Positions 37,286 through 43,380 of a DNA stretch of 64,000 nucleotides are shown in pieces. Position 1 is the first letter of the stretch, and every line of letters begins with the position of its first letter. Where the stretch lies: positions 1,193-65,192 of the IMG/VR virus record IMGVR_UViG_2932017207_000003. The stretch is one strand, 5' to 3'. The notes under the pieces were generated by a model. The model did not search any database, was not told where the DNA came from, and saw only the letters and a list, made by a program, of their open reading frames with translations. The position numbers were made by a program, and so were the translations under genes. This DNA comes from a virus.

Positions 37286-37466
37286 TGCTCGCCCTCCGCT
37301 ATCTGATTGTCGATCGCAGCATCCTGGCCCCATCGTCCGGCGGGTCATCCACGGCACCACTTCCCCAACATCCGCGAACGTGGGGCAAGACAAGGGGACC
37401 CAGGCCGCATACCAATGCAGAGGCGGACATGGGTCCCGCCGCATGTCATCGACAGAGGCGGCACGT

Positions 37467-37539
37467 TGCAGGGGCCGGATTTGAACCGGCGACCTTCGGG
37501 TTATGAGCCCGGCGAGCTACCAAACTGCTCCACCCTGCA
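37467..37539 (-). tRNA. tRNA-Met(CAT), initiator-like anticodon stem
   Basis: Cloverleaf TGCAGGG/CCCTGCA; GGG-CTCATAA-CCC; GGTTCAAATCC; CCA not encoded. Confidence 0.92.
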
Positions 37540-37577
37540 CTGTCTCGGTACTGATTCCGCGCCGAGCCGCGGGGCCG

Positions 37578-37651
37578 TGCCTCTCCCCGGATTCGAACCG
37601 GGATCTACCGCCTTTTGAGGACGGCTCCTCTGCCAGTTGGGACAGAGAGGC
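37578..37651 (-). tRNA. tRNA with CAA anticodon (Leu), short variable loop
   Basis: GCCTCTC/GAGAGGC; CCGTC-CTCAAAA-GGCGG; CCCGG-TTCGAAT-CCGGG. Confidence 0.85.
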
Positions 37652-37891
37652 AGGAGAGCAGCGCCACACGCCGAACTGTGTGCGGCCACTGCCCCAGTAG
37701 ACGCCCCAAAGGGACTGGTGAGCCTTTACCTCACTGCTCAGCGATCACTCCGCCTCGTGAGCGAATGCCGCTGCAACTCGATGCGTCGACTTTCGTACCC
37801 GGCTCGACGCTTACCCGGTCTGACCTCTGTCCACGCAACAGGATCTCGTCAGCATGTTCATCAACCGCCGGCTTCTACGGCAGATTGCGCG

Positions 37892-37964
37892 TGCCTCCGC
37901 CAGGTTTTGAACCTGGGACCCGCCGATTAAAAGTCGGCTGCTCTACCAACTGAGCTACAGAGGC
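37892..37964 (-). tRNA. tRNA-Lys(TTT)
   Basis: GCCTCTG/CGGAGGC; GCCGA-CTTTTAA-TCGGC; canonical D and T arms. Confidence 0.93.
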
Positions 37965-38082: not shown

Positions 38083-38173
38083 TTCCCCTGGCGGGACTTG
38101 AACCCGCGACCCGCGCCGAGTCGGACGATTGAATCCGACAGGGCACTGCGCTAACCACCTGCGCCACAGAGGA
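38083..38173 (-). tRNA. tRNA-Asp(GTC)-like gene with a 17-nt anticodon-loop insertion
   Basis: TCCTCTG/CAGGGGA acceptor, GCGC D-stem, GTGCC/GGCGC anticodon stem, GCGGG-TTCAAGT-CCCGC T arm; 24-nt loop CTGTCGGATTCAATCGTCCGACTC. Confidence 0.8.
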
Positions 38174-38349
38174 GCCCAGCTCTGGAGGCCGACCGACTTA
38201 ACGGGAGAGGCAATACCTCGGGACACCCCAGCAACTGGACGTATTCAGTTGTCAGCTACGGAACCGCGTTGGCAGTCCGTAGGGCTCGCCGCACCAAGTA
38301 CGACTACCCCGGCTCAACCTGAAAAAGGCATGCGCCAAGGATGAGGCCA

Positions 38350-38378
38350 ATAGTACCGATGCATACCGTTCACATCAA
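38350..38378 (-). promoter_or_regulatory. Sigma-A-type promoter for the tRNA operon
   Basis: TTGATG-17 nt-TACTAT on the minus strand. Confidence 0.75.
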
Positions 38379-38402: not shown

Positions 38403-38442
38403 TTGCAGGTGTAGGTACACCCTGCTACGGTGTACCTACACC
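38403..38442 (+). promoter_or_regulatory. Sigma-A-type promoter overlapped by a 14-bp perfect inverted repeat
   Basis: TTGCAG-17 nt-TACGGT; arms GGTGTAGGTACACC (38408-38421) and GGTGTACCTACACC (38429-38442). Confidence 0.75.
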
Positions 38443-38460: not shown

Positions 38461-38715
38461 ATGAGTACCAATGCCGCCCACGATCGCCTACATGAACTCG
38501 TCAGCACCCAATCCACCGAAGTCCTACTCGAATCACTCCGCCAACTGGGCCGCACCGCAGAGAGTGCCAGCCAGGATGAGATCGTTGTCGGAACGTGGAT
38601 CTTCGGTGAGCTAACCGAACGCCACCGCGACCAGATCGACCTCGACAGGCTCGACTACGACATGTACCAACGGGGCATGAGCGACGCCGATGCTATTGAA
38701 TCCCAGATCGCATAG
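38461..38715 (+). CDS. Hypothetical protein (84 aa)
   Basis: ATG after a GAGGGG RBS, downstream of the promoter. Confidence 0.7.
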   Translation: MSTNAAHDRLHELVSTQSTEVLLESLRQLGRTAESASQDEIVVGTWIFGELTERHRDQIDLDRLDYDMYQRGMSDADAIESQIA

Positions 38716-38796: not shown

Positions 38797-38952
38797 ATGA
38801 GCAAGGGAACGACGCTTCGCAACATACGAATCAGTGACGAGCTGTGGGAGGCTGCCAAGCTTCGCGCCGAAGCCGAGGGGCGCACAGTCTCCGATGTAGT
38901 GCGAGAAGCGCTCACCGCCTATATCGCCCACTCCTCGCGGAAGTCGGGATGA
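38797..38952 (+). CDS. Ribbon-helix-helix (CopG/Arc-like) DNA-binding protein
   Basis: Manual translation MSKGTTLRNIRISDELWEAAKLRAEAEGRTVSDVVREALTAYI; AAGGA RBS. Confidence 0.8.
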   Translation: MSKGTTLRNIRISDELWEAAKLRAEAEGRTVSDVVREALTAYIAHSSRKSG

Positions 38953-39263
38953 TCCGAGTACACGGAGGCAAGGGCGCGCACTGTCATGCACGGGTATGGC
39001 TGGGTGTAGGCGATGACTTTGCCGTCTTCTTCCCAGACCCCATCGGAGTCGAGGCAGCGCAAGCACTGACCCTCAGCGTCAATGTGGTCATCAAGGATCT
39101 GCCGCTTCGCCTCCACCTCCCGCCCGATACGCACCGGTGTGTCCGCAAGGTTCCGGTACTGCGGTACACCACCAAATCTGGCTACAGCGAGGCCCTCGAT
39201 TTGCTGGGCTCGATTGCCATCCGCATCGAGGCGAGCGTGCAAGAACTCCACGATTTCGCTCAC
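38919..39263 (-). CDS. DUF6221-like protein
   Basis: VEFLHARLD...REVEAKR.IL...LRALA.VY.DHPD(F/Y)..EW pattern. Confidence 0.7.
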   Translation of the reverse strand: MSEIVEFLHARLDADGNRAQQIEGLAVARFGGVPQYRNLADTPVRIGREVEAKRQILDDHIDAEGQCLRCLDSDGVWEEDGKVIAYTQPYPCMTVRALASVYSDHPDFREEWAI

Positions 39264-41136: not shown

Positions 41137-41393
41137 GATGCTGTCCTATGTTCGGGCGCGTAGGCGCGGAGGTCTTCCCACATGATCCGAGCCATGTAGC
41201 CGGGCACACTGTGGCTGGCTGGCACGATCTTCCAGCCATCCGGGCCGGTCGGATACTCGCTGTCACGTTTCAGGATCCGCGTTCGATTCGACGCCGGCAC
41301 CTGGTACTGGCTGCGTTCCGTCCAGTCGATGCTGCCGTCAGCCTGCACCCAGCCGTGCTCCACAATCTGCATCAACGTGCACTCATCGGCCAT
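41133..41393 (-). CDS. Hypothetical protein
   Basis: 86 aa, coupled to Pnkp. Confidence 0.55.
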   Translation of the reverse strand: MADECTLMQIVEHGWVQADGSIDWTERSQYQVPASNRTRILKRDSEYPTGPDGWKIVPASHSVPGYMARIMWEDLRAYAPEHRTAS

Positions 41394-42301
41394 CAGAAGT
41401 CACCGTCCTGCACCTGGAAGCACTTCAGGCCAATTCCCCGCCACATCTCGACGACCTGCCGTCGATCGTCAAAGACCCCGAGAACGTTGTAGGAGTGGCG
41501 GACATGTTCGTTGAACAGTTCGTACTTGACGATGGAGTCGCGCCGCTTGTCGCCCGCGGCTCGCATGTAGAGGGCGTCGAATCGGACCTTGTTGTCCTGC
41601 AACCAGGCTGCGGTTTCGGCACGGCAGTCGTCGTCGCGGCCGGACATGACAATGATCGACGCGCCTGTCATCTCCAGCCGACGCACTACGCCGGCGACCG
41701 ACTGGTCGAGTGTGTCCTCCCCGACCCGGCTGTAGTCGTAGATGTCGCGGTCGCTCTTGTGGGCGAGGGTTCCGTCGATGTCCACGATGTAGGCGCGCGG
41801 CAGGTCAGGGTTGGGTACGTACGCTTCCAAGTCGATCTGCAGGGTCGGCGCTGGCACGATGGGCTGCCACGCTTTGATGGGGAAGCGTTTCGCCATCGTC
41901 CGGATGACGTCTTCGGGTACGAGCCGGCCACCAGCATCGGCTCGGGCCTTGTTGCGGCGGATGCACTCGTCTGCGTCGAGACGGAAGTCGACGACCTGGA
42001 AGTCCGCACCGACTTCGACGGCAAGGTTCGCGATCTCGCGGGTGTACTTGGCGCGGAGGTTGGTGTCGTCGAAGATCACCGACACACCGTTCGACAGGAG
42101 ATTGCGGGCGGAGGTGTGCTGAACGATGGTGACGTTCCGCTCCTGCAAATAGGTACCCCGCCCTGTCACGCCGAACAGGGACTTGCGGAGGTCGTCACGG
42201 TTCAGATGCACCCACTCCTCGGGGTTCTCGGCGACCTTGGCCTGCGCCCATGAACTCTTCCCAGATCCGGGGTATCCGCGGGTGATGATCAGTTCGGTCA
42301 T
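41393..42301 (-). CDS. Polynucleotide 5'-kinase/3'-phosphatase (T4 Pnkp-like)
   Basis: RGYPGSGKS P-loop, NRDDLR, DDTNL; HAD motif DIDGT, SGRDD, FDDR. Confidence 0.92.
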   Translation of the reverse strand: MTELIITRGYPGSGKSSWAQAKVAENPEEWVHLNRDDLRKSLFGVTGRGTYLQERNVTIVQHTSARNLLSNGVSVIFDDTNLRAKYTREIANLAVEVGADFQVVDFRLDADECIRRNKARADAGGRLVPEDVIRTMAKRFPIKAWQPIVPAPTLQIDLEAYVPNPDLPRAYIVDIDGTLAHKSDRDIYDYSRVGEDTLDQSVAGVVRRLEMTGASIIVMSGRDDDCRAETAAWLQDNKVRFDALYMRAAGDKRRDSIVKYELFNEHVRHSYNVLGVFDDRRQVVEMWRGIGLKCFQVQDGDF

Positions 42302-43380
42302 GCCGCGTTTCCGATGCTGGTCATGTAGGTGTCTCCTGCTGGTTTGATGGCACGCCAGATCGCGGCGTCGAGTTTGGCGTGGTTGGCGTCGAGCATCATG
42401 AACAGGTACGGCCGCAGGTCCGGATGCTTGGAGGCTTCGAGCGCGAACGTCTTCCGGTCCATGTACGGGTCGCCGTCGGTGATGTCGATGTAGGCGGTGC
42501 GAGCCTTGGTCCACAGTGCAGTGAACTCGGCGTTGAGGCGTGCGCGAATCGACTCGCACCACGGGTGGAACTCGTCCGGAACAACGGAAACGAACTCGTC
42601 CCAGCGGTCGTTCGCGAGGGCTTCCCACACGCTGCGTTCCGTCAGTCCGGTGACGATCTTGTGGAGTGCGACGTAGTCGTCCTGCTTGATCTTCACGCGC
42701 TGCCCGGTGTCGGTGAAGCGGACCACGAGACCTTCAGCGTTCGGGCGCGGTTCAGCAGCCAGAGCTTCATGCAGCGTTCGGTGCGAGAAGCGTTCCGCCC
42801 GGCTCGCGGGCCAATCGACGTCCATCCAGTCCGGAAGATCTGCGCCGGTCTCTGTGTCGACGACACCGAGCAGGATGAGGTCTTCCCGCTGCCCGTAGTC
42901 GAGGACGATGCGGTTCTGCGGATAGATGATCTCGAACAGGTATGTCAGACCAGGTTCGGGCAACCATCCGTCGCGCAGGTGGTTCCAGTAGTACTGGTCC
43001 GCCCACTGGGCCTGCTCACTCTGGAAGCTGCCACGGGTAGCGATCCTGAACTGGTCCGCACCATCAAGCCAACCGATTCCAAGGCTTCCATCGGCCTTGT
43101 CGGTGACTTCTACGGGTGCGTCGAGGTCGAGGTTGCCGGCTTCGGGTTGGTTGTGGTTGAAGAACTTCGACCACGGTCGCGCCTGGATATTGCCGCCGAC
43201 ATCGGTGATGAGGCCACGGCATTGGCGGGTGGCGTCGTTCCACACTCCGCCGTACTGCGCCGCCTCCGTGTACGAGTACAGGATGAATGGCTCGATGGGA
43301 TGCCGCTTCTGGCGGATGTAGCCTTCGCTGATCATGGCGGCGAGCAGGCCGGGATCCATGAGTTGATCGATGTGGGTCAC
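42298..43380 (-). CDS. RNA ligase (T4 Rnl1-like)
   Basis: RQCRGLI, KFFN, KADGS adenylation motif, ATRGSF.S.QA, FEII, EGLVV, RVKIK..DY. Confidence 0.9.
   Translation of the reverse strand: MTHIDQLMDPGLLAAMISEGYIRQKRHPIEPFILYSYTEAAQYGGVWNDATRQCRGLITDVGGNIQARPWSKFFNHNQPEAGNLDLDAPVEVTDKADGSLGIGWLDGADQFRIATRGSFQSEQAQWADQYYWNHLRDGWLPEPGLTYLFEIIYPQNRIVLDYGQREDLILLGVVDTETGADLPDWMDVDWPASRAERFSHRTLHEALAAEPRPNAEGLVVRFTDTGQRVKIKQDDYVALHKIVTGLTERSVWEALANDRWDEFVSVVPDEFHPWCESIRARLNAEFTALWTKARTAYIDITDGDPYMDRKTFALEASKHPDLRPYLFMMLDANHAKLDAAIWRAIKPAGDTYMTSIGNAA

Follow-up and report, generated by a model that had tools for sequence, protein, structure and literature searches.

A tRNA-Asp-like gene with a closed anticodon arm in an actinophage provirus and its relatives behind a common leader

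The tRNA genes of phages are generally taken to supplement the codon supply or to replace tRNAs that host defences have cut. The 91-nt gene described here folds as a cloverleaf and carries 17 additional nucleotides in its anticodon loop, which raises the question of whether a tRNA is made from it by removal of the insert or whether the tRNA shape serves a purpose other than decoding. The first-pass annotation of this locus had offered two readings, a tRNA intron spliced by proteins and an unspliced decoy for anticodon nucleases or AspRS.

The gene lies in a window of 64,000 nt, the whole stretch of DNA that was analysed, which is part of an IMG/VR provirus record of 71.6 kb with a G+C content of 63% and genes located nearly all on the minus strand. 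Pfam matches in the window to a LysB-type cutinase/PE-PPE esterase, TerL and a portal protein are hallmarks of actinophages, and the closest cultured portal proteins are those of Gordonia phages (52% identity). A close relative of the window phage was found neither by megablast against INPHARED nor by IMG/VR locus searches via LysB and Pnkp. A 1.1-kb stretch is present with zero differences in two public DNA runs, which may be the source samples, and an assembly artefact is therefore unlikely, with the same reservation about the origin of the runs. Searches of public runs with the 1.1 kb (runs of any kind) and with 501 nt (RNA runs) retrieved no RNA run containing the stretch. The features of the locus are collected in Table 1.

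Table 1. Features of the tRNA-like locus and its surroundings, in window coordinates.
Feature	Position	Strand	Basis
tRNA-Met(CAU)	37465-37539	minus	ARAGORN + Rfam
tRNA-Leu(CAA)	37577-37651	minus	ARAGORN + Rfam
tRNA-Lys(UUU)	37891-37964	minus	ARAGORN + Rfam
tRNA-shaped gene, type C, 91 nt	38173..38083	minus	ARAGORN, Rfam, fold, match to Mycobacterium tRNA-Asp
17-nt insert after nominal position 37 (RNA positions 39-55)	38119..38135	minus	deletion enumeration, ARAGORN intron mode
Extension hairpin closing the anticodon loop	38120..38139	minus	MFE and centroid folds, shuffle test
Spacer, 68 nt, self-contained hairpin domain between motif and tRNA-like gene	38174..38241	minus	folds
18-nt motif GTAGCTGACAACTGAATA, core ACAACTGAATA	38242..38259	minus	predicted single-stranded
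Near leader, two hairpins	38256..38305	minus	BLAST, alifold
Putative leftward promoter TTGATG-17-TACTAT	38350..38378	minus	prediction only
DUF6221 gene	38919..39263	minus	Pfam, 3e-17
Pnkp	41393-42628	minus	Pfam, HAD_PNKP 7e-53
Rnl1-type RNA ligase	42298-43380	minus	Pfam, RNA_lig_T4_1 2e-13

Structure and descent of the 91-nt gene

The intact cloverleaf arms described for this gene at first reading were recovered both by model search and by folding. The Rfam tRNA model (RF00005) recognised the 91-nt sequence with 48.7 bits, above its gathering score of 29, and the MFE structure is a cloverleaf of -44.1 kcal/mol (z = -2.7) with which the centroid fold agrees, comprising an acceptor stem of 7 bp, a D stem of 4 bp, and anticodon and T stems of 5 bp each. 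The T loop reads UUCAAGU. The acceptor stem is UCCUCUG/CAGGGGA, CCA is not encoded, and the discriminator is A73, as had been read earlier, in place of the G expected for tRNA-Asp.

The anticodon arm departs from this ordinary plan. ARAGORN with default settings called the gene 'tRNA-???' with anticodon 'gt', and the Rfam alignment placed a 20-nt insertion in the anticodon loop. This loop is indeed 24 nt long, and the insert pairs over the GUC anticodon as proposed: the 5-bp anticodon stem is followed by a 2x2 internal loop (CU/UC) and then by an extension helix of 7 bp, GUCGGAU/GUCCGAC (38139-38133 with 38126-38120), which contains the GUC and is capped by six nucleotides, UCAAUC (38132-38127). 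A perfect Watson-Crick helix of at least 6 bp over the anticodon arose in just 0.6% of shuffled inserts (p ~0.006); thus, the insert of the window gene is not random filler. As a separate observation, the sequence UUCAAUC at 38127-38133, with the weak U-G pair counted as open, matches the T-loop consensus UUCRANY.

Several known classes of RNA were compared with the gene. Taken as a functional decoder, with a 7-nt loop, U33, a purine at position 37 and a free anticodon, it fails through the length of its loop and the pairing of its GUC. The AspRS identity set consists of G73, G34-U35-C36, C38, G10 and G2-C71. GUC, G10 and, after trimming, C38 are present in the window gene, which fails as a tRNA-Asp on account of A73 and C2-G71. 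Nor is it a tmRNA, given that ARAGORN found none, that C3-G70 stands in place of G3-U70 and that a tag reading frame is absent. The Rfam mascRNA model (RF01684) yielded a sub-threshold match of 23.4 bits.

The proposed tRNA-Asp origin was strengthened by comparison with cellular genes. In two Mycobacterium genomes the 91-mer finds its top matches in the tRNA-Asp(GUC) genes, and 60 of 74 positions of its body are identical to Mycobacterium tRNA-Asp(GUC) once the 17 nt are gapped. The D arm, the CUGUC, the variable loop and the T arm are nearly unchanged, and all tertiary-core nucleotides are kept. Pairs 1-72, 2-71 and 27-43 changed on both sides with pairing preserved, so that the window gene has U1-A72 and C2-G71 where the Mycobacterium tRNA-Asp has G1-C72 and G2-U71. 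Relative to tRNA-Asp, pairs 4-69 and 28-42 are wobble pairs, the stems contain zero mismatches, and discriminator G73 has been replaced by A. Judging by these alignments, the parent of the window gene is an actinobacterial-type tRNA-Asp(GUC).

A family of closed anticodon arms behind one leader

Relatives were found through a 24-mer from the 3' end of the gene and the 18-mer located upstream of it, in IMG/VR proviruses and two cultured phages. The resulting family consists of seven distinct sequences, the window gene and six relatives, which fall into four types. Type A (78 nt) comprises L010 = L014, L012 = L013, and Rhodococcus phage ReT1v-1 (LC859273; L248); type B (84 nt) comprises L003 = Rhodococcus phage REQ2 (JN116823; L247), and L007; type D (78 nt) is represented by L287; and type C (91 nt) is the window gene, a singleton. 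All seven scored above the gathering score of the Rfam tRNA model, with 36.5-49.6 bits. They have in common the acceptor stem UCCYCUG/CAGGGGA (UUCCCUG in type D), and A73 and C74 are almost invariant across the types. Type A matches Mycobacterium tRNA-Asn at 92% identity in its 5' half; because their best matches are separate, tRNA-Asn for type A and tRNA-Asp for type C, the two types have different parents, and they carry the same acceptor end despite this.

The core cloverleaf is 96.4% paired over the seven sequences, with 100% pairing in the acceptor and T stems. Pair 51-63 of the T stem is C-G, G-C or A-U, and pair 12-23 of the D stem is U-A or G-C. The observed covariation score was reached by none of 500 shuffles, a result that, with seven related sequences, is indicative rather than proof. 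G18-G19 and the UUC that starts the T loop are kept in most members, and relaxed features are found in type B (a damaged D stem), type D (T loop UCCGAAU) and type A2 (G58). Across the family, then, the acceptor/T-arm minihelix and the D/T elbow are intact, and the anticodon region varies.

This variable region is closed in every member, by four caps unrelated to one another (GGAA, CAUCCCA, CAAUA and UCAAUC). The arm of type A consists of a 5-bp stem, a bulged G, 3 bp and the tetraloop GGAA; the pairing of its extension is kept through changes, with G-C, A-U or G-U at one pair and U-G to C-G at another, and two of the three type A sequences have a C at nominal position 33. Type B has 3 bp, a GAA bulge, 7 bp and the cap CAUCCCA, with an A-U to G-C change between REQ2 and L007, and the arm of type D is a helix capped by CAAUA. 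Conservation peaks within the unit: G004 and G007 agree completely over the motif and the tRNA-like gene (100%) and to 95-97% over the leader, compared with 77% over the upstream ORF.

The family pattern was not found in 401 Mycobacteriales genomes, and outside the known members the pattern TCCSGCCAGGGGAAC gave just chance matches among the matches listed. Literature searches turned up neither these RNAs nor any tRNA-like gene of REQ2, whose record leaves the tRNA-like gene and two tRNA-Ser genes unannotated. The window gene is most likely a member of a small undescribed family in phages of the Rhodococcus/Mycobacteriales type. In ReT1v-1, the CDS RPTV1_680 (minus strand; L248 2334-2678, LC859273 39332-39676) spans the leader and the tRNA-like gene, and this 'hypothetical protein' over the unit is probably spurious.

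The order of the unit is the same in every member, namely a stable hairpin, a single-stranded stretch with ACAACUGAAUA, and the tRNA shape, ACAACUGAAUA being the motif common to all members upstream of that shape. The complete 18-nt motif is identical in seven related proviruses or phages, each of which has a tRNA or tRNA-like gene after it. In the window, the leader hairpins are P1 (38304-38288) and P2 (38282-38256, CUACGG..CCGUAG); P2 is the hairpin of most members, and a different one stands at its place in G002 (CUACAUCGA..UCGAUGUAG) and in L287 (GGUUCAGC..GCUGAACC). The near leader (66-69 nt) is 91-94% identical between the window and G004-G007, and the DNA that can be aligned between them in this region is limited to the leader, the 3' end of the tRNA-like gene and one non-coding block. 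Such conserved islands could also mark places where phage modules recombined. Types A, B and D have no spacer, the tRNA shape beginning 2-4 nt after the motif, and at the place of the 68-nt spacer of the window G003 has an unrelated closed hairpin of ~49 nt. A match of the DUF3800-IV RNA over the spacer (33.5 vs 60.7 bits, Rfam) is not conserved in the relatives and was taken as chance.

Two further features of the leader region were observed. Followed by GG (types A, B and G001) or by CG (in the window), the 18-mer has stops in three frames (UAG, UGA, UGA, UAG), which may be due to chance in an A/U-rich stretch or may halt read-through ribosomes from the upstream gene. Moreover, a stem-rich far leader of ~180-240 nt is located upstream of the near leader in ReT1v-1 (L248 2330-2500) and also in G002, G004 and G005-G007 (-240 to -62 from the motif), and the window has no counterpart. 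The far leader is conserved at 95.5% identity between G004 and G007, compared with 77% for the adjacent ORF, and belongs to no Rfam family.

The gene had been described as the first after a consensus promoter. A promoter-like TTGATG-17-TACTAT is present, but it matches the consensus at only 8 of 12 positions and falls below the threshold of the consensus scan. As for the leader itself, it was rejected as a promoter for want of a usable -10 at a fixed distance, as an attP because its similarity to host tRNA lies in the 5' half and the integrase region is located elsewhere, and as a cos site because the REQ2/ReT1v-1 motif lies 1.1-2.1 kb inside the right end of the record (the end type of REQ2 is unreported).

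Searches for the 18-nt motif gave chance matches only in species-representative genomes, and in metagenomes chance matches plus one divergent unit, L228 (Ga0207796_1006000, minus strand, ~1745-1835), whose contig is an unrelated phage-like sequence with a G+C content of 59%. In this unit the exact 18-mer directly follows a stop codon and precedes a tRNA-like fold without a D arm (acceptor CGCCUCG/CGGGGCG), which the Rfam tRNA model did not detect, and then an RBS and an ORF.

In all members the unit separates the last genes of the early region from the late/terminase genes. The genes for tRNA-Lys, tRNA-Leu and tRNA-Met located downstream of the window copy are normal and have the same orientation, and in G002 and L228 an RBS and ORF come within 30-50 nt. 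In G003, the slot after the same motif holds a normal tRNA-Asn(GUU) with 64.3 bits; thus, a real tRNA can occupy the slot. DUF6221 homologues are located immediately upstream of the leader in G004 and G007 (blastp synteny), and in the window a divergent plus-strand cassette of small genes lies between the DUF6221 gene and the leader, a separation seen in this phage only. Within that interval a perfect 14-bp inverted repeat (38407-38441; GGTGTAGGTACACC, 6 nt, complement), which has the form of a palindromic operator of the divergent cassette, lies just 5' of an ORF on the plus strand, which has a strong RBS and its start at 38461 and diverges from the tRNA unit. DUF6221 was the only gene found conserved beside the unit, with 84 of 88 DUF6221 loci lacking the RNA, and a protein co-occurring with the tRNA-like RNA was not found.

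Non-coding DNA next to the unit was noted on its own account. Positions 37775-37885 of the window (minus strand), between the tRNA-Lys and tRNA-Leu genes, include ~100 nt of non-coding sequence 88% identical to G004 (L010/L216), in which the counterpart directly follows the tRNA-like gene; the flanks are unalignable and the block has no Rfam match. The whole 239-nt spacer between tRNA-Lys and tRNA-Leu has an ordinary folding energy (z = 0.13). A non-coding block also follows the tRNA-like gene in ReT1v-1 (L248 2623-2803) and REQ2 (L247 2630-2765); closed by GGGUGGAG...CUCCACCC and containing CUUAAGAACGAGGCG, it has no Rfam match. This block recurs, unannotated, in several Arthrobacter phages (72-78% over ~150-180 nt), ~350-495 nt from the left genome ends. 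Its 32-35-nt core is found in further Arthrobacter phages, and the block adjoins tRNA-Gln in Stenotrophomonas virus Jojan60 as well.

Candidate roles for a tRNA shape that does not decode

The comparisons described above establish the structure, descent, family and conservation of the gene, and its role has to be weighed against them. It is likely that the RNA is a non-decoding tRNA mimic kept by selection. The best overall explanation, to which we give an even chance, is that this mimic probably works as a processing module for RNase P and RNase Z; taken by itself, the processing role is a model in which our confidence is tentative and falls somewhat short of even.

A 17-nt insert that pairs with the anticodon has turned the loop of a tRNA-Asp into a continuous helix, and the acceptor end has been altered to U1-A72, C2-G71 and A73. 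According to this model, the RNA would be kept for its upper half, i.e., the acceptor and T arms with the D/T elbow. RNase P, RNase Z and the CCA-adding enzyme read the acceptor/T-arm minihelix and the D/T elbow. The RNA could then act in cis as a processing module heading the tRNA/late transcription unit, where cuts at both of its ends would free the conserved leader and set the ends of the downstream tRNAs or mRNA. Closure of the anticodon would bar from translation a tRNA of scrambled identity, with an Asp anticodon, an Asn-type acceptor top and A73. The anticodon region, on which the ribosome and most synthetases rely, has been destroyed in four different ways across the family. We favour the processing reading because the upper half is kept, the anticodon is destroyed, the slot is open to a genuine tRNA and the position is fixed. 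It leaves unexplained the near-invariant acceptor and A73, as well as the presence of the same end in Asp- and Asn-derived copies. That copies of different descent carry one fixed acceptor sequence suggests a specific ligand.

Such a ligand is central to the main rival of the processing module, a decoy acting in trans, which we consider rather unlikely. After processing and CCA addition, the RNA would be bound or modified via its acceptor end and elbow, with the anticodon ignored, and it would serve as a decoy, sponge or cofactor; the factor involved could be a host toxin or defence enzyme acting at tRNA 3' ends, or a charging or transfer enzyme that works independently of the anticodon. The almost invariant acceptor, A73 and C74 of types C and A, despite their respective Asp and Asn origins, argue for this possibility, as does the disabling of the anticodon in four ways, which is expected if decoding alone must be avoided. 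Furthermore, the window phage invests in tRNA conflict, with Pnkp, Rnl1 and a tRNA-Lys(UUU), and it is established that phage tRNAs can counter defences directed at tRNAs (PMC10264068, PMC11464382). However, no partner protein co-occurs with the RNA, nearly all DUF6221 loci (84/88) being without it, an ordinary tRNA-Asn occupies the slot in G003, and the fixed position behind a conserved leader suggests a role in cis.

It is improbable that the gene is a decaying pseudogene, that is, a phage tRNA-Asp inactivated by the 17-nt insertion and drifting without function. Decoding is impossible, G73 has been lost, type C is a singleton and D/T features are relaxed in some relatives, all of which would fit such decay. 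Nevertheless, the stems have no mismatch and three compensated pairs relative to cellular tRNA-Asp, the insert pairs perfectly with the anticodon (p ~0.006), and a closed arm was reached by different sequences in the relatives. The G004/G007 gene is also more conserved than the neighbouring coding DNA. Intact and compensated stems, together with conservation exceeding that of adjacent coding DNA, thus make a drifting pseudogene unlikely.

The intron reading, in which an endonuclease would excise the 17 nt and the phage Pnkp and Rnl1 would join the halves into a tRNA-Asp(GUC), is not supported, and we regard it as very improbable. Several observations on which it was founded hold. Deletion of RNA positions 39-55 (38135-38119) restores a normal loop, CUGUCGC, with the insert at 37/38 as stated (deletion of 40-56 gives CUGUCGG), so that the insert is at one of the canonical places, 37/38 or 38/39, and its pairing with the anticodon is a feature of eukaryotic tRNA introns as well. 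ARAGORN with introns allowed, the check recommended by the first-pass annotation, calls tRNA-Asp(gtc) with a 17-nt intron, and Pfam matches confirm Pnkp and an Rnl1-type ligase nearby, 3.2-5.2 kb from the tRNA-like gene. Within the family, the window phage alone combines both repair genes with a trimmable insert.

The relatives speak against excision. Every single contiguous deletion was enumerated for a product with a 5-bp stem, a 7-nt loop, U33 and a purine at position 37, and the window copy alone yielded one, none of the six relatives (0/6) being reducible to a canonical loop. The intron reading is unsupported because the closed arms of these relatives are unrelated in sequence and none can be trimmed. 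Intron mode applied across the family produced Asp (17 nt), Pro (4 nt), Gly (2 nt) and Arg (5 nt), and since they disagree, these isotype calls are formal artefacts. Pnkp was not found in G001-G006, nor Rnl1 in G001, G002, G003, G006 and G007, three of the records in each set being at least 95% complete. Thus, the repair genes are context only, and the closed-arm design is independent of the repair cassette. The check for an insert conserved in relatives and co-occurring with rnl1/pnkp thus revealed neither, the caps being unrelated and the repair genes not found. A second copy of the 17-nt insert was not found in the window or in IMG/VR, so the conservation of the type C insert itself cannot be judged.

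Nor did the provirus show signs of an excision machinery. The MFE fold contains neither a bulge-helix-bulge, in agreement with the initial reading, nor its relaxed form, the 5' site being inside the 7-bp helix and the 3' site in the 2x2 internal loop. An EndA-family gene (PF01974) was not found in the provirus record, whereas control genomes gave matches, and we know of no EndA/Sen-type tRNA splicing endonuclease in bacteria. Rfam searches at E up to 1 detected no intron or ribozyme at the insert, and a group I intron was rejected, since 17 nt are far too short for self-splicing against a catalytic core of ~200 nt or more. The spliced product would, in addition, carry A73 and C2-G71.

Least probable of all is the other reading first proposed, a decoy for an anticodon nuclease or AspRS, for although the window copy keeps the CUGUC of the tRNA-Asp loop and the phage has tRNA repair genes, recognition by anticodon nucleases and by the anticodon-binding domain of AspRS depends on an open loop, which is absent or buried in every member, GUC being paired and not displayed in the window copy and the relatives having no anticodon-like loop.

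Meaning of the family and comparison with known systems

Beside codon supply and the replacement of cut tRNAs, the family points to a third use of the phage tRNA shape, in which the shape would be under selection and decoding disabled, behind the same leader. Decoding appears to have been lost at least twice, from different parents (tRNA-Asp and tRNA-Asn). The family also carries a warning, as tRNA finders run in intron mode will call such genes intron-bearing tRNAs of arbitrary isotype. Because the cultured phages REQ2 and ReT1v-1 carry unannotated members, the RNAs are open to bench study. If the acceptor end does have a specific ligand, a new phage-host interaction at the tRNA 3' end would follow. 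An intron, if true, would be the first protein-spliced tRNA intron outside archaea and eukaryotes, its product would combine an Asp anticodon with an Asn-type acceptor top (U1-A72), and the cutter would be a phage or host nuclease.

Among known RNAs, an ordinary bacterial tRNA-Asp(GUC) differs from the window gene, whose 24-nt loop is closed by a helix and presents no anticodon. The system of archaeal and eukaryotic tRNA introns consists of a bulge-helix-bulge, an EndA/Sen endonuclease and a ligase. The 37/38 introns of these organisms resemble the insert in position, in pairing with the anticodon and in a length that is within their range, whereas the window lacks a bulge-helix-bulge or endonuclease gene and the insert is unconserved in the relatives. 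In tmRNA and YrlA Y RNAs, as here, the upper half of the tRNA is kept and a long helix replaces the anticodon arm; unlike them, the window gene has no tag frame or Ala identity (G3-U70), and its topology is not permuted. Stable RNAs C and D of T4 (species 1 and 2) are non-decoding, lie in a tRNA cluster and are co-processed with tRNAs. They are likewise small non-decoding RNAs within a phage tRNA cluster, in different hosts and with no expected relation in sequence.

The mascRNA of MALAT1, mitochondrial tRNA punctuation and plant t-elements are tRNA-like modules at which RNase P and RNase Z define the ends of neighbouring RNAs. They share with the window gene a non-decoding tRNA shape inside a longer transcript, which in the window is predicted; they are eukaryotic or organellar, whereas the phage family keeps four arms and a fixed acceptor sequence. 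Finally, 'enigmatic introns' whose splicing was not shown have been predicted in tRNAs of the Lak megaphages of Prevotella (Devoto et al. 2019, PMC6784885). Those phages and inserts are unrelated to the window gene, but the likeness lies in short phage tRNA inserts that can be called only with eukaryote or intron settings, and the Lak 'enigmatic introns' (PMC6784885) are the nearest published phage parallel to the family.
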